From an uncultured archaeon (lineage in GTDB: Archaea > Asgardarchaeota > Lokiarchaeia > Sigyniarchaeales > Promethearchaeaceae), in assembly GCA_964426185.1 (NCBI GenBank), contig CAYRPF010000110.1:1-7326 (forward strand): 7,326 bases of DNA. Reading direction: 5' to 3'. The notes under the pieces are model-generated. The model was given only the letters and a program-made list of their open reading frames with translations, was not told the origin of the DNA and ran no database searches. This document shows, piece by piece, positions 2,202 through 7,326 of the stretch; within the stretch, counting starts at the first letter, position 1; each line of letters opens with the position of its first letter. Position numbers and translations under genes: made by a program.

Positions 2202-2275
2202 GTACATTTTTTGATTTTTTATGTTGAAATCAAAACAAATGTACGTGTTAATGCAAAATTTATTAACATTTGAAA
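2202..2275. promoter_or_regulatory. Triple-box operator candidate (31-bp period) upstream of tusA-dsrEFH, overlapping a BRE/TATA-like element
   Basis: GTACATTTTTTG (2202-2213), AAACAAATGTAC (2233-2244), TAACATTTGAAA (2264-2275); same register at 6330-6403. GCAAAA-TTTATTAA (2253-2266) fits BRE-TATA. Confidence 0.7.
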
Positions 2276-2295
2276 TAACAAAAATAGTGAGAATT

Positions 2296-2520
2296 ATGGC
2301 AGATTTTACTGAAGATTTTAAAGGGCTCAAATGCCCCATGCCTGTTTTGAAAGCGAAAAAGGTGATTAAGAAAATGGCTCCTGGTCAGACTTTTGAGTTT
2401 GTGGCTGATGATAGTGGTGCGAAAGTGGATATTCCTCCCTTACTGAATAAAACTGGATGCACTTTAGTAGAAATGAAAGAAGAAAACGGGATATATACCT
2501 TTTTAATCAAAAAAGATTAG
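2296..2520 (+). CDS. tusA: TusA/SirA family sulfur carrier protein, 74 aa
   Basis: DFKGLKCPMPVL contains the CPxP motif (Cys13), followed by MAPGQTFEFVADDSGAKVDIP. The start is more likely ATG 2296 (GTGA upstream) than 2221, because the longer N-terminus overlaps the regulatory region and exceeds the usual family length. Confidence 0.93.
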   Translation: MADFTEDFKGLKCPMPVLKAKKVIKKMAPGQTFEFVADDSGAKVDIPPLLNKTGCTLVEMKEENGIYTFLIKKD

Positions 2521-2574
2521 AGTTGTGATTATTTCTGTCTTTTTTATTGATGAAATTTGGAGAGAATTTATAAA

Positions 2575-2928
2575 ATGAAACTAGCATTTTGCGTTATGAC
2601 AGAATTCCTCAAATTCCAACCAGTTTATACTATGATTAATCTTATTAAAGCCGCGCAAGAAAAGAATCATGAAATTTTAGGGATATTCTTCTTTGGAAGC
2701 GGAGTATTAAATATTCAAAAAGGTGCTCATTTAGGCAAAAATACTCGGAATATTTCGGCTGAGTTGGAGAATTTAGGAGTTTCCATTGTTGCATGTCAAA
2801 CTTGGGCAGATAACATGGCCATATTTAAGGAAAACGCCATTGAAGGCGCAGATATCACCGGATTAGGTGAATTATCAAATATGACAGCAGAAGCGGATAA
2901 AGTAATTGTATTCGGTTCTCATGCATAG
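2575..2928 (+). CDS. dsrE: DsrE/TusD-like sulfur relay subunit, 117 aa
   Basis: GIFFFGSGV, IVACQTWA (Cys74, equivalent to the active Cys78 of TusD/DsrE), GADITGLGELS..ADKVIVF. ATG 2575 preceded by GGAGA; first of three DsrEFH-like genes. Confidence 0.85.
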   Translation: MKLAFCVMTEFLKFQPVYTMINLIKAAQEKNHEILGIFFFGSGVLNIQKGAHLGKNTRNISAELENLGVSIVACQTWADNMAIFKENAIEGADITGLGELSNMTAEADKVIVFGSHA

Positions 2929-2950
2929 GAAATGATTAGGAGGTAGAAAA

Positions 2951-3316
2951 ATGGAATCAGTATTAATTTTATGCGAAAAAGGACCCTTTGGGACTAATTC
3001 TGGTATGGAATCGATCCGATTGGGAGCAGGTTATATTGCGTTAGGTGAGGACCTTGATTGTAAGCTGGTATTTTACGGCGCCGGGGTACTTAACCTATTG
3101 AAAAACCTCGACCCAAGTCAAATCGGCATGGATCTGATGGATGAAGGAATTGAAATGGCGGATTTATCCGAGTTACCTATTGTTTTGGTAAATGAAGATT
3201 TAGAGCAATTTGGATACACTCAAGCTGATCTGATTGAATATGAATCCCTAGAATTGGTAAGTAGGGCAGAACTTCCAAGTATTTTGAAGGAGTTTGACAT
3301 GGTATTCCGGATGTGA
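2951..3316 (+). CDS. dsrF: DsrF/TusC-like subunit
   Basis: KGPFGTNSGMESIRL, LVFYGAGVLNLLKNLDP, VNEDLEQFG, FDMVF; strong SD AGGAGGT at 2938-2944; lies between dsrE and dsrH. Confidence 0.85.
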   Translation: MESVLILCEKGPFGTNSGMESIRLGAGYIALGEDLDCKLVFYGAGVLNLLKNLDPSQIGMDLMDEGIEMADLSELPIVLVNEDLEQFGYTQADLIEYESLELVSRAELPSILKEFDMVFRM

Positions 3317-3342
3317 TATTGGAACAAAAGGAGGAAAAAATC

Positions 3343-3663
3343 ATGGAACACTTAATTTTATATGGTTATGCAGGAATGGAGAAACAAAAATTGCAAGATC
3401 TACAAATGTTTACCGAAAGCTGGGAAGATTGCCACTTGGTATTAATGCAAGATGCTGTTGTCGGAACCACAACTGGTGAAAATGAATCCACGGCTGTATT
3501 AGAAAAATTCAAGAACAACGGATGGAAAATTTATGCTCTCCAGGAAGATGTTATCGCACGAGGGTTACCTTTAGAAAAGATCAAATATTTTATTGAACCC
3601 ATCACCTATTATGGCGTTATTGATCTTATCACAGATTCAAAGCAATTAATCTCATGGTTATAA
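3343..3663 (+). CDS. dsrH: DsrH/TusB-like subunit, 106 aa
   Basis: LVLMQDAV, IYALQEDVIARG, ITYYGVIDLI..ISW are the DsrH/TusB signatures; AAGGAGG upstream of ATG 3343 favours this start over GTG 3313. Confidence 0.88.
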   Translation: MEHLILYGYAGMEKQKLQDLQMFTESWEDCHLVLMQDAVVGTTTGENESTAVLEKFKNNGWKIYALQEDVIARGLPLEKIKYFIEPITYYGVIDLITDSKQLISWL

Positions 3664-3689: not shown

Positions 3690-4877
3690 TCAAGATGTTC
3701 TTTTTTTTGATTTTGATCTCAAATCTGCTACACATTTTTTCAAAGTGTTTTTTACATATTCTAATTGTTCACGAGTGTTATCCCTTCCCAAAGTCAATCG
3801 GATAGAACCCGCAGCCATTTCTTCTGATAACCCCATCGCAGTAAGAACATAAGATACATCATGAGATTTTGAATGACAAGCTGATCCCACAGATACGGCA
3901 ATATTATGATTATTCAAAGCTTGGAGCAATTCGCTGCCATCAATTCCTTCAAATCCCACATTTATATTAATTGAAACACGGTGTTTAACTCCACCGTTTA
4001 AATAACTCCCAGTAATTTCAGAAAGAATCCATCTAATCAAATCGTCTCTAAGAGATAATAAGCGAGAATTCTCTTCTGACATATTATTATAACATATTTC
4101 AACCGATTTAGCAAATCCAACAATATTTGCAACATTTTCGGTAGCTGAGCGAAATCCAAACTCTTGTCCACCTCCATAAGTAATAGGAATAATATATACC
4201 CCTCGAGCAGGATGTTTACCTCGATTGCGGATGAATAGCATTCCAATACCCTTTGGACCGTAGATTTTGTGTCCTGATGCTGAAAGTAAGTCGATTTTTT
4301 CTTGCTGTAAGTTGATGGGTAATTTTCCGAAAGCTTGGACCGCATCAGTATGCAAGATTATATTTCGTGTTGAAGTAATTCCTGCAATTTCTCGAATGGG
4401 TTGAATACTACCAATTTCATTGTTTGCATAAATAATTGAAACCAAAATTGTATCATCGCGGAGAAGCCGCTTAAATTCTTCCACAGAAACCAAACCTTCC
4501 GAATCGATAGATAGATAAGAAACCTCAAAACCCTCAAGTTGGAGTTTTCGGAAACAATTTCTTACGGCAGGATGCTCAATTGGGGTGGTTATCATATGTT
4601 TTCCAAATTTTTTCATTTTATGCGCCGTTCCCAAGATTGCAATATTATCCGCTTCGGTTCCACTTCCTGTAAAGATAATTTCCTCTGGTTTCGCTCCAAT
4701 ACATTCAGCTATTCGTGCACGAGAAGTTTCAATTGCTTTCCGAGTATATTTCCCCAAATTATGCATGGAAGAAGCGTTCCCAAAATGATTTTTAAGATAA
4801 GGCATCATTTCTGCCAAAACTTCGGGATCCAAAGGAGTGGTGGCAGCATGATCTAAGTAGATAAATTCACGCTCCAT
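3690..4877 (-). CDS. iscS: Cysteine desulfurase, group I (IscS/NifS-type), PLP-dependent
   Basis: IYLDHAATTP, FGNASSMH, IIFTGSGTEADN, IEHPAV, ANNEIG, HTDAVQAFGK, SGHKIYGPKGIG (PLP Lys), GGGQE, GSACHS (catalytic Cys), SIRLTLGR. Confidence 0.96.
   Translation of the reverse strand: MEREFIYLDHAATTPLDPEVLAEMMPYLKNHFGNASSMHNLGKYTRKAIETSRARIAECIGAKPEEIIFTGSGTEADNIAILGTAHKMKKFGKHMITTPIEHPAVRNCFRKLQLEGFEVSYLSIDSEGLVSVEEFKRLLRDDTILVSIIYANNEIGSIQPIREIAGITSTRNIILHTDAVQAFGKLPINLQQEKIDLLSASGHKIYGPKGIGMLFIRNRGKHPARGVYIIPITYGGGQEFGFRSATENVANIVGFAKSVEICYNNMSEENSRLLSLRDDLIRWILSEITGSYLNGGVKHRVSININVGFEGIDGSELLQALNNHNIAVSVGSACHSKSHDVSYVLTAMGLSEEMAAGSIRLTLGRDNTREQLEYVKNTLKKCVADLRSKSKKRTS
3698..3716 (+). terminator. 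Oligo-T tract, candidate archaeal-type terminator of the tusA-dsrEFH transcript
   Basis: T8 run at 3701-3708, about 38 nt after the dsrH stop. It also encodes Lys codons at the 3' end of the opposite-strand desulfurase gene, so it may be coincidental. Confidence 0.35.
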
Positions 4878-4899
4878 ATAAGGAAGAAAATTAATGGTG

Positions 4900-4907
4900 T
4901 ATATAAA
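4900..4907 (-). promoter_or_regulatory. TATA-box candidate for iscS (probably leaderless transcript)
   Basis: Minus-strand TTTATATA begins 30 nt before the ATG at 4877; no SD motif upstream of the start. Confidence 0.5.
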
Positions 4908-4986
4908 GCAATGGGTAATATTACAAAAGATTGATTTTTAAAATAAAAATGCACATATATGCGGATATACGTATATATTCGATAAC

Positions 4987-5000
4987 CCGAAATTTTAAAG
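4987..5000 (+). promoter_or_regulatory. BRE/TATA candidate for the second tusA (probably leaderless transcript)
   Basis: CCGAAA-TTTTAAAG; the first T (4993) is 30 nt before the ATG at 5023. Confidence 0.5.
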
Positions 5001-5022
5001 TAAATAGAAAAGAATTTTACCC

Positions 5023-5322
5023 ATGGCAAAAGATCTGGAGATCTCGTCCCACTCGAAAAAAAATGATCGAGATGAGCGCGATTTAGATTGGGATAAACAA
5101 GGAAAGGAATTAGATTTACGCGGAGTACAATGTCCGATGACCTTCGTTTATACAAAAGTAACATTGGAAGAAATGTCACCAGGTGACTTACTTCGGTTGA
5201 TTCTCGATTTTCGCTCCGCTTTTACCAATGTGCCAAAAAATGTAGTAAAACAAAAATTGGGAAAAATTATTCATGAAATCGAACAAGATAATGTTAAAAC
5301 TATATGGATAGAACGAATTTAA
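5023..5322 (+). CDS. Second TusA/SirA family sulfur carrier with a charged N-terminal extension
   Basis: ELDLRGVQCPMTFVYTKVTLEEMSPGDLLRLILD..NVPK; CPxT variant motif (Cys37). Confidence 0.9.
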   Translation: MAKDLEISSHSKKNDRDERDLDWDKQGKELDLRGVQCPMTFVYTKVTLEEMSPGDLLRLILDFRSAFTNVPKNVVKQKLGKIIHEIEQDNVKTIWIERI

Positions 5323-5334
5323 CCTCTTATTTAG

Positions 5335-6156
5335 CTAATTACATTCATCATTCACGATATAATATTTTTCGGTCAGATAAAATGGCTCTTTGGGATTGCT
5401 ACATGCCGCACACGAAGGATTGCGCTTGATCGAAATAAAATCGAAAATATTTTCCGCCAAATCGAAAGTAAACAATCCATTTGTGAATTTTTGAGATTTT
5501 CCTATCAGTGTTTTTATCGCTTCATTTGCTTGGAGAATACCAGCAAAACTAGGGACAGTATTAATAACACCGGCGGCTGAACACGACATCGATTCATCAC
5601 CGGCAGATATAGTATGGAAAATGCAACGATAACAAGTGGTTTCTCCTGGATTCACCGAAATCAACTGCCCCATCCATTGAACAACGCCGGCTATGGTAAA
5701 GGGTATATTTAGATGAACGCATACATCATTTACCAAAAATTTAGTGGCAAAATTATCGCTAGCATCAATGACATAATCAGAACCTTTCAGAATTTCGGCA
5801 GAATTTTCTCGCGTAAGTAATTCTGGGAAGATTTCCAACTTAACATCTGGATTAATGGCTTTTACCTTATCGGCGATGCTGTCAACTTTCTTTCGACCCA
5901 CATCTGGTGTTAAGTGTAATGTTTGTCTTGGGAGATTAGATAAATCTACCAAATCCCCATCAATAACCTTAATGTGTCCGACTCCAGCCGATGCCAGCAT
6001 TTGAATCACGGGGCAGCCTAAACCACCAGCACCTACTACAGTTACGGTTGCATTCAGAAGTTTATTTACCCCTTCACTTCCAAAATCGGTTAAGATAATA
6101 TGACGGGAATATCGATGAACTTGGTCATCAGTTAATTTGTGGAAATTTTTCTTCAT
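5335..6156 (-). CDS. HesA/MoeB/ThiF family adenylyltransferase (E1-like), no rhodanese domain
   Basis: RYSRHIIL, VVGAGGLGCP, DGDLVDLSNLPRQ, DASDNF, Zn motifs CYRC and CAAC, conserved loop Cys in SCSAAGV, QANEAIK. Confidence 0.95.
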   Translation of the reverse strand: MKKNFHKLTDDQVHRYSRHIILTDFGSEGVNKLLNATVTVVGAGGLGCPVIQMLASAGVGHIKVIDGDLVDLSNLPRQTLHLTPDVGRKKVDSIADKVKAINPDVKLEIFPELLTRENSAEILKGSDYVIDASDNFATKFLVNDVCVHLNIPFTIAGVVQWMGQLISVNPGETTCYRCIFHTISAGDESMSCSAAGVINTVPSFAGILQANEAIKTLIGKSQKFTNGLFTFDLAENIFDFISIKRNPSCAACSNPKEPFYLTEKYYIVNDECN

Positions 6157-6329: not shown

Positions 6330-6403
6330 GTACATTTGGCAATTTTATCTTATAGAACTGGATCAAATGTAATGTTAGAAATAGATTTATAGTACATTTG
6401 TTT
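6330..6403. promoter_or_regulatory. Triple-box operator candidate (31-bp period) upstream of dsrE2
   Basis: GTACATTTGGCA (6330-6341), GATCAAATGTAA (6361-6372), GTACATTTGTTT (6392-6403); TTTATA at 6386-6391 abuts box 3, and another TTTATATA lies at 6298-6305. Confidence 0.7.
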
Positions 6404-6443: not shown

Positions 6444-6863
6444 ATGCCCAAAGTAATGAATTTTATTGTTTCCGAACAATCCTTTGAAAAATTCGGAATG
6501 ATGGTTATCCTTGGCACTACTGGTGCTGCCATGGAAACAAAGATGAATTTCTTTTTCACCTTTTGGGGTATCAATCTATTGAAAAAAAATTTCAAACCGA
6601 AAGTGGCGGGAATGCCGTTTCCTATGAAAGGAATGGCAGCGATGATGTTTAAAAAGAAATTAAAATCTTTCGGATACGAAGATATGTGGGAAATGGTTAA
6701 AGATGGAATTGAAGAAGGAAATATTAAACTCTATCCTTGCTCAATGACCATGGATTTAATGGGTGTGAAAAAGGAACAAATCCACAAATTCTGCGAAGAG
6801 CCTATCGGCGCTGCCAAGTTCATTGAAATGGCAGATGAAGCGGATAAGGTAATTTCCTTATAA
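6444..6863 (+). CDS. DsrE2-like (DsrE/DsrF/DrsH-like family) sulfur carrier protein
   Basis: TTGAAM, FFFTFWG, LYPCSMTMDLMG (conserved Cys99), GAAKFIEMA; GTGA upstream of the start. Confidence 0.9.
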   Translation: MPKVMNFIVSEQSFEKFGMMVILGTTGAAMETKMNFFFTFWGINLLKKNFKPKVAGMPFPMKGMAAMMFKKKLKSFGYEDMWEMVKDGIEEGNIKLYPCSMTMDLMGVKKEQIHKFCEEPIGAAKFIEMADEADKVISL

Positions 6864-6970: not shown

Positions 6971-7326
6971 ATGACAAATACAGCTAATTATCCAAAAAAA
7001 CATCAAGAAGTGGAATTAACTCAATTAGACAAACAAATTCTGCAGATTTTACAAGAAAATGGAAAAGCTTCTCTTCGGTCTATTGCCCAAAAATTAAATT
7101 CTTCCGTTTCCGCAGTGAAAAATCATGTAGATAAACTAACAGAAACAGGTGTAATCCAATCTTACACTGCATTGATTGATTGCTGCAAAATTGGATATAA
7201 AGAAATGCTCCTTTTATTTATTCGGGTGAGTAATTCCGTCCCAATAAGTGAAATTTTCGATAAATTGGCAAAAATCGATAAAATTAATGCAATATATCAA
7301 ATTTCGGGTACATACGCTATTTTCTG
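6971..7326 (+). CDS. Lrp/AsnC family transcriptional regulator, 3'-truncated by the window edge; not in the ORF track
   Basis: Manual translation: MTNTANYPKKHQEVELTQLDKQILQILQENGKASLRSIAQKLNSSVSAVKNHVDKLTETGVIQSYTALIDCCKIGYKEMLLLFIRVSNSVPISEIFDKLAKIDKINAIYQISGTYAIF... Classic Lrp HTH (LDKQILQILQENGK..LRSIAQKL..V..L...GVI..Y) plus the start of a RAM domain (YQISG). Confidence 0.92.
   Translation, partial: MTNTANYPKKHQEVELTQLDKQILQILQENGKASLRSIAQKLNSSVSAVKNHVDKLTETGVIQSYTALIDCCKIGYKEMLLLFIRVSNSVPISEIFDKLAKIDKINAIYQISGTYAIF

Follow-up and report, generated by a model that had tools for sequence, protein, structure and literature searches.

An Lrp/AsnC regulator with invariant cysteines beside sulfur-carrier and heterodisulfide reductase genes in one order of Lokiarchaeia: a possible thiol-based sulfur sensor

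The archaeal DNA analyzed here, a stretch of 7,326 nucleotides that we call the window, ends inside a gene for an Lrp/AsnC-type regulator with two adjacent cysteines, a short distance from genes for persulfide carriers. An earlier note on this DNA, made from the letters alone, had proposed that such a protein may respond to cysteine or persulfide. This raises two questions: is the regulator dedicated to the sulfur genes around it, and are its own cysteines the part that senses the signal?

The window comprises all of contig C110 from assembly G000 (155 contigs, 92% complete), and the regulator gene is therefore truncated by the assembly. Its reading frame (6971-7324, forward strand) has no stop codon before the contig ends and translates into 118 residues. 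A protein of 163 residues, P0001, is identical to the window protein across all 118 of them and supplies the missing end. The full-length protein has four cysteines, at positions 71, 72, 119, and 123. We confirmed on the sequence that codons 71 and 72 are both TGC, within I-D-C-C-K-I-G-Y. The dangling TG at the end of the contig, which had been left open as a Cys, a Trp, or a stop codon, belongs to Cys119. Recovery of the full gene thus succeeded through the identical protein but not within the assembly, since the 3' end was searched for elsewhere in G000 (92% complete) and not found; Cys123 and the remainder of the RAM domain lie past the contig end and are absent from G000. Near-identical orthologs are present in the public records of Promethearchaeum syntrophicum and Candidatus Lokiarchaeum ossiferum, both of which are cultured.

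The assignment of the partial frame to the Lrp/AsnC family was borne out by the Pfam matches to the DNA-binding and RAM domains and by the predicted fold. Residues 16-63 match HTH_24 (PF13412, 1e-13) and HTH_AsnC-type (PF13404, 1.1e-9), and full-length P0001 has a precomputed match to the RAM domain (PF01037), half of which lies within the window. The AF2 model, a monomer built from a 32-sequence alignment (mean pLDDT 82, secondary structure by DSSP), has N-terminal helices at 18-29, 35-42, and 46-58, then a short hairpin and a one-turn helix at 71-74. The RAM domain follows with the order beta-alpha-beta-beta-alpha-beta (strands 78-86, 105-110, 117-123, and 142-149; helices 92-100 and 126-137). 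The best matches by Foldseek and phmmer are FL11 (PH1519), PH0140, ST1022, AsnC, and Lrp. None of the named NCBIfam Lrp equivalogs (Lrp, AsnC, LysM, LrpA, LrpA1, ChrS) reaches its cut-off: the best NCBIfam match, NF041396, scores 86.9 bits against a cut-off of 190, and the others are also far under theirs. Judged by these sequence models, the regulator is an Lrp/AsnC protein that stands outside the described named ones. The features of the locus are collected in Table 1.

Table 1. Features of the regulator gene, its neighbors, and the partial gene copies seen in related loci. Positions refer to the window unless a locus is named.
Feature	Position	Strand	Basis
tusA-dsrE-dsrF-dsrH, conserved partners of the regulator	2221..3663	+	Pfam; synteny in 19/21 loci
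Second set of GTACATTT(G)-type boxes upstream of tusA (presumed operator)	2202-2244		Pattern search
Three GTACATTT(G)-type boxes upstream of dsrE2 (presumed operator)	6330..6400	.	Pattern search
dsrE2, directly upstream of lrp and co-directional	6444..6863	+	Pfam DrsE_2, 3e-20
Lrp/AsnC regulator gene, 5' part (118 codons + TG of 163)	6971..7326	+	ORF list; 100% identity to P0001
Winged helix-turn-helix DNA-binding domain (aa 16-63)	7016..7159	+	Pfam HTH_24, HTH_AsnC-type; AF2 helices
Cys71-Cys72 (TGC TGC), junction of DNA-binding and RAM domains, N-terminus of predicted helix 71-74	7181..7186	+	Sequence, alignments, DSSP of AF2
RAM-domain strand beta-1 (aa 78-86)	7202..7228	+	AF2 secondary structure; Foldseek matches
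Effector loop (aa 111-117, I-S-G-T-Y-A-I)	7301..7321	+	Column counts; mapping to MtbLrp 100-106
First two bases (TG) of the Cys119 codon	7325..7326	+	P0001: F-C-M-A-K-C after A-I-F
Partial lrp 3' copies, locus L047	7515-7730, 9257-9547, 11146-11448, 14608-14733
Partial lrp 3' copy, locus L050	10209-10565
Partial lrp 3' copies, locus L053	4494-4640, 6414-6578
Partial lrp 3' copy, locus L056	15256-15453
Partial lrp 3' copies, locus L057	11290-11676, 16631-16810

How unusual are the cysteines? We aligned 277 Lrp domains to the family profile, taken from a first search and from the best 150 matches of a profile search in 1.8 billion proteins. Position 71 is most often Pro (135 of the 277), then Tyr (37) and Cys (29, of which 22 belong to the subfamily of the window protein), and position 72 is variable and normally polar (E, S, R, A, or K). 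This agrees with the earlier note, which had pointed out that ordinary Lrps differ at the Cys-Cys site. Position 119 is Ala, Val, Leu, or Ile, with Cys in 28 domains, and position 123 is Cys in 100 and otherwise Ala, Phe, Val, or Leu. As far as these columns tell, Cys71 together with Cys72 is unusual for an Lrp, and Cys123 on its own is not. Among the 13 Lrp-like frames in the genome of the window, two have Cys71, and both are linked to hdr genes: the window gene and a paralog on contig C38.

The cysteine feature is conserved beyond chance, the Cys-Cys at 71-72 being kept in 15/15 closest database homologs (54-77% identity) and in the genomes of family f1. Across a wider set the two residues part ways. 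The 32 aligned members (34-77% identity) share 16 invariant columns, which include Cys71, Lys122, and Cys123, and a scan of 400 genomes added 33 further members, all of which retain Cys71 and Cys123. Read at 71/72/119/123, these 33 have the patterns CRIC (23), CCCC (5), CRVC (2), CQIC (1), CRLC (1), and CSIC (1). Hence, Cys71 and Cys123 are unchanged in all of the approximately 60 members examined, down to 34% identity. Cys72 is limited to family f1 and its closest metagenomic relatives; Cys119 occurs in the same set and also in the paralogs, which read C-S at 71-72. In families f3 and f4 the regulator has C-R, C-S, or C-Q at 71-72, beside the same tusA-dsrEFH-dsrE2 genes. The expectation that the doublet would be conserved in homologs next to tusA and dsrE genes therefore stands for Cys71, found in all of them, and falls for Cys72: since f3 and f4 differ at that position, the vicinal pair is not conserved among syntenic orthologs. 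The core feature is an Lrp subfamily linked to Hdr and sulfur carriers with invariant Cys71 and Cys123, and one family has elaborated it into the Cys-Cys doublet. Outside the subfamily, Cys71 and Cys123 occur together in 4/7 cases against a background of about 30%, too few cases to mean anything. One close homolog, P0024, has Tyr at 71, and a genome scan for it gave only a relative of 28% identity.

A second departure from ordinary Lrps concerns the effector loop, which corresponds by offset-11 match ranges to residues 100-106 of MtbLrp, the type I effector-binding loop of that protein (PMC2175373). Gly113 is kept. Position 116, which is Asp in 152 and Asn in 40 of the 277 domains, is Ala in the window protein, mostly Pro in the subfamily, and Pro, Ala, or Ser overall. 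The subfamily thus lacks the Asp/Asn of the amino-acid-binding type of loop, which leaves its family membership unaffected. Free cysteine as an amino-acid effector, one of the two signals suggested in the earlier note, becomes less likely because of this replacement.

We then compared 21 loci of 20 kb, from 20 strong homologs and the in-genome paralog, using as queries the proteins of the window and the downstream genes of a complete genome of the same genus. The regulator adjoins hdrC-hdrB(-hdrA-mvhD) in 20/21 loci and tusA-dsrEFH-dsrE2 in 19/21, and the single locus without hdr stops at a contig edge inside dsrE2. The proximity to persulfide-carrier genes is thus tighter than the earlier reading saw, and extends to hdrCBA-mvhD. 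No hdr gene is seen in the window because the contig stops inside lrp; at ortholog-level identity, none was found across the rest of G000 (92% complete). The order dsrE2-lrp-hdrC is seen in L041-L044. In family f1, lrp is embedded between the carrier genes and hdr (e.g., L041, and L044 at 7747-18153), in the order tusA-dsrE-dsrF-dsrH-dsrE2-lrp-hdrC-hdrB-hdrA-mvhD. Behind mvhD come an Oxidored_q6-like gene, a ferredoxin gene, and a second tusA, and the whole series runs in one direction. In families f3 and f4, lrp is divergent from tusA-dsrEFH-dsrE2-hdrCBA-mvhD and the genes after it. In the locus of G014, lrp-hdrCBA alone was seen.

Some details are particular to single lineages. Positions 3690-6156 of the window hold an iscS-like gene, a second tusA, and a thiF/E1 gene inserted between dsrH and dsrE2, an arrangement limited to the genus of the window and L041; every other locus has dsrE2 directly after dsrH. 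Downstream of hdrA-mvhD, the stretch 2868-5322 of L041 encodes a 429-residue protein whose sole match is hydrogenase-small-subunit-like (Oxidored_q6). It also holds a gene for a small ferredoxin, one more dsrE, and a third tusA, and within its bounds we saw no large subunit of a hydrogenase. The paralog on C38 (about 14.2 kb; L061 9684-10220) has 179 residues, C-S at 71-72, Cys119, Cys123, and an insertion in the HTH region. It directly follows a second, paralogous hdrC-hdrB-hdrA-mvhD-ferredoxin set (L061 4974-10220, the paralog included). After the paralog, on the opposite strand, come genes for an ornithine cyclodeaminase-like protein and an aminotransferase. In genera g9 and g15, several partial 3' copies of lrp, covering the RAM domain and some with stop codons, lie 0.1-8 kb past the intact gene (Table 1), and those of L047 are interspersed with hypothetical, LRR/TPR, and beta-propeller genes. 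Their appearance suggests that insertions recurred at the 3' end of lrp, or that a tandem duplication is decaying. We rejected them as the mark of an integrated element, there being no integrase between the copies.

The distribution of the regulator is narrow. In the profile search, scores drop sharply past about ten clusters (50% identity) at E < 1e-40, after which come generic or tandem Lrps. Among 400 Asgard genomes, matches better than 1e-55 come only from the order of the window (families f1-f4, about 80 genomes), and the best match outside it is 1e-33. Within these 400 genomes the subfamily is found only in this one Lokiarchaeial order. Across 61 relatives, we compared the presence of strong Lrp matches with that of dsrE2 matches. 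Both are present in 22 and both absent in about 32, some of these 97-100% complete and including the whole genera g11 and g13, whose genomes are mostly 94-100% complete. The seven discordant cases are all at contig edges or in genomes that are 66-76% complete. This pattern requires several joint losses or gains, though related genomes are not independent. Taken from gene content and order, the regulator is very probably the dedicated transcription regulator of the tusA-dsrEFH-dsrE2-hdrCBA-mvhD cluster.

If so, its binding sites may be visible in the window. The repeated GTACATTT boxes before tusA and dsrE2 are likely the targets of the regulator. Exact copies of GTACATTTK cluster at these two places, and the motif is not enriched in the window as a whole (9 observed, 5.4 expected from shuffles); a pattern search for it directly upstream of lrp found none. 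In the f3 loci (L046-L060), the 100 nt before tusA hold a TTTAAATA box and then an inverted repeat whose arms differ between genera (e.g., GATATCA/TGATATC, ATACCAAAT/ATTTGGTAT, and TTATCAC/GTGATAA). Individually these repeats are not significant against shuffles, and they could be an operator or an RNA hairpin.

What the regulator responds to is the harder question. The reading we favor, as a plausible and tentative one, is that the hinge between its domains holds a switch based on a thiol, disulfide, or persulfide. The input, which may reach it through the very TusA and DsrE carriers under its putative control, would be sulfane sulfur or disulfide stress. This input would persulfidate Cys71 (with Cys72 in f1) or cross-link it to Cys123 or to a partner subunit, and the ensuing shift in hinge geometry or oligomer state would alter how the regulator binds the box repeats that precede tusA and dsrE2. 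Here we infer the DNA targets, the thiol chemistry, and the direction of regulation, next to an observed fold, conservation, synteny, and co-occurrence. Several findings favor such a switch: Cys71 and Cys123 are invariant, Cys71 replaces the Lrp proline exactly at the interdomain hinge, both cysteines are near helix N-termini and beside conserved basic residues, the Asp/Asn of the effector loop is gone, and the neighboring genes all handle persulfides or disulfides. The topology also favors it, as it should put the end of beta-3 beside the start of beta-1. Cys71 starts the predicted helix 71-74, and Cys123 ends strand 117-123 (beta-3 of the RAM domain), after the invariant Lys122. The strands beta-1 and beta-3 of a ferredoxin-like sheet are antiparallel to each other. 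As beta-1 starts a few residues past Cys71, the two cysteines should lie on the same sheet edge in the modeled fold.

Other findings speak against the switch. Cys123 is common in Lrps at large, in a column otherwise hydrophobic, so that it may be a buried core residue, and the same holds for Cys119. Cys72 and Cys119 are missing in most syntenic orthologs. The whole D-C-x-x-[LI]-G-Y-x-E-M stretch is conserved, and Cys71 could thus be kept for packing. Moreover, the classical effector pocket, as known from MtbLrp (PMC2175373), does not include Cys71 or Cys72. A bolder form of the proposal is doubtful at this stage: that this is the first thiol-switch Lrp/AsnC, whose hinge Cys71 (a Cys-Cys in Promethearchaeum-type genomes) would take sulfane sulfur directly from TusA or DsrE and bridge to Cys123 or to the partner chain, so that the relay would report its own loading to the promoter of the Asgard Hdr operon.

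The same dedicated regulator may instead carry its cysteines as packing residues, typical of anaerobe proteins, and bind a ligand non-covalently in a remodelled RAM pocket between dimers, or bind none. The ligand could be a thiol cofactor, a thiosulfate-derived metabolite, or some other compound that is not an amino acid. Structural cysteines combined with a ligand held non-covalently come close in likelihood to the thiol switch, and the synteny and co-occurrence fit both equally well. In other Lrps, positions 71, 119, and 123 are hydrophobic, with Cys common at 123. The retention of Gly113 together with the change at residue 116 suggests a different ligand rather than none, and a review of archaeal Lrps, in which all known effectors are amino acids, considers that some members probably bind something else or nothing (PMC2995911). 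However, a hydrophobic role would normally tolerate Ala, Val, Ser, or Pro, and neither Cys71 nor Cys123 is ever substituted in about 60 sequences. Their placement beside conserved basic residues and near helix N-termini, and the turn of the exposed position 72 to Cys in one whole family, also argue for something other than packing.

It is improbable that the cysteines form a metal or Fe-S site, either with four cysteines per chain (f1) or, elsewhere, with Cys71 and Cys123 from two chains, through which the protein would sense redox, metal, or Fe-S status as IscR or SufR do. The four cysteines of the window protein do fall into two pairs (C-C and C-x3-C), the Pfam matches of the window include IscS-like and NifU_N genes, and the putatively regulated Hdr proteins are rich in Fe-S clusters. 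Yet most syntenic orthologs keep just two cysteines per chain, iscS and nifU adjoin the regulator only in genus g1, and the protein is without a known cluster-binding motif. By geometry, residues 119 and 123 should also point to the same side of their beta-strand with about 13 A between them, a poor fit to a single cluster site. Three or four conserved metal-ligand residues are not kept across the subfamily, with four cysteines only in f1 and two elsewhere. As f3 and f4 keep two, we rejected a per-chain four-Cys cluster as a family-wide mechanism; a site between subunits may still form.

That the protein is a general, chromatin-like or global Lrp whose adjacency to the cluster is historical, with no specific control role, is very hard to credit: Lrp proteins can act globally, and the targets in the cluster are predicted only, but the adjacency outlasts the changes of gene order and strand between families, the regulator is present and absent together with dsrE2, its paralog sits beside a paralogous hdr set, and 11 other Lrp-like genes in the genome could serve general roles.

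We return to the regulator as the dedicated partner of the cluster, with the thiol switch as its plausible mode of sensing. What the heterodisulfide reductase of Asgard archaea acts on is so far a matter of guesswork, with sulfur bound to carriers as the current candidate; persulfides bound to TusA and DsrE have already been proposed as substrates of Asgard Hdr, without mention of a regulator (bioRxiv 10.1101/2025.07.22.663070). A dedicated regulator of the cluster is a practical handle on this substrate, as the signal that switches it is likely the signal or substrate class of the pathway. If it is true that the cysteines sense sulfur, Lrp/AsnC joins the families with thiol-based sulfur sensing. 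If they do not, this is still a well-defined, lineage-specific pair of regulator and target, in an archaeal group with almost no described gene regulation. With orthologs in cultured organisms, and a small protein that should be easy to make, the idea is testable. A full-text literature search turned up no paper that connects the Lrp/AsnC family to persulfide sensing, and none that connects FFRP to disulfide and redox; the words cysteine and redox are absent from the text of the review of archaeal Lrps (PMC2995911).

Among known systems, the closest solved structure is that of FL11 (PH1519; PDB 2cyy, 1ri7, 2e1c), with the same HTH and RAM fold (33% identity and E 4e-13 by Foldseek, E 1.6e-22 by phmmer). 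FL11 and the regulator have in common the Gly of the effector loop and the L-G-Y motif. FL11 differs in having Pro-Glu at the site of the Cys-Cys, Asp at 116, and Val and Thr at 119 and 123. It senses Lys and Arg and controls amino-acid metabolism, whereas the subfamily described here is tied to sulfur carriers and Hdr. Ss-LrpB of Sulfolobus solfataricus is an Lrp without a known amino-acid effector (PMC2995911). It has three regularly spaced operator boxes, which recall the three presumed ones upstream of dsrE2. Its target genes differ, and, unlike the regulator, no conserved cysteines are reported for it.

Two further systems respond to cysteine or sulfur. CyuR belongs to the Lrp/AsnC family and responds to free L-cysteine, presumably as a bound effector. 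In E. coli, this protein (also DecR or YbaO) is the Cys-dependent regulator of cyuPA (bioRxiv 10.1101/2023.05.16.541025). While CyuR responds to free cysteine, the regulator is without the usual Asp/Asn of the effector loop and its distinctive feature is the protein's own cysteines. SurR of Pyrococcus furiosus has a sulfur-responsive CxxC redox switch, in which oxidation of the cysteines switches DNA binding. It is from a different family and its CxxC is inside the DNA-binding domain, whereas the cysteines of the regulator are separated by 52 residues, one in the hinge and the other in the RAM domain.

A likeness in function would be to the dithiol persulfide sensors CstR (CsoR family) and SqrR/BigR, sHdrR, and SoxR (ArsR family), small repressor-type proteins which, like the regulator, have a conserved cysteine pair and are encoded beside genes for sulfur transferases or sulfide handling. 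One preprint reports that the cysteine pairs of such sensors become linked as di-, tri-, and tetrasulfides, upon which the DNA is released (bioRxiv 10.1101/2021.07.25.453692). Two conserved cysteines per protomer, by which dithiol sensors are recognized, are found here as Cys71 and Cys123 in the 32 aligned and the 33 further sequences. The regulator has the Lrp/AsnC fold, unrelated to CsoR or ArsR/SmtB, and by analogy could at most work like the CstR and SqrR sensors.
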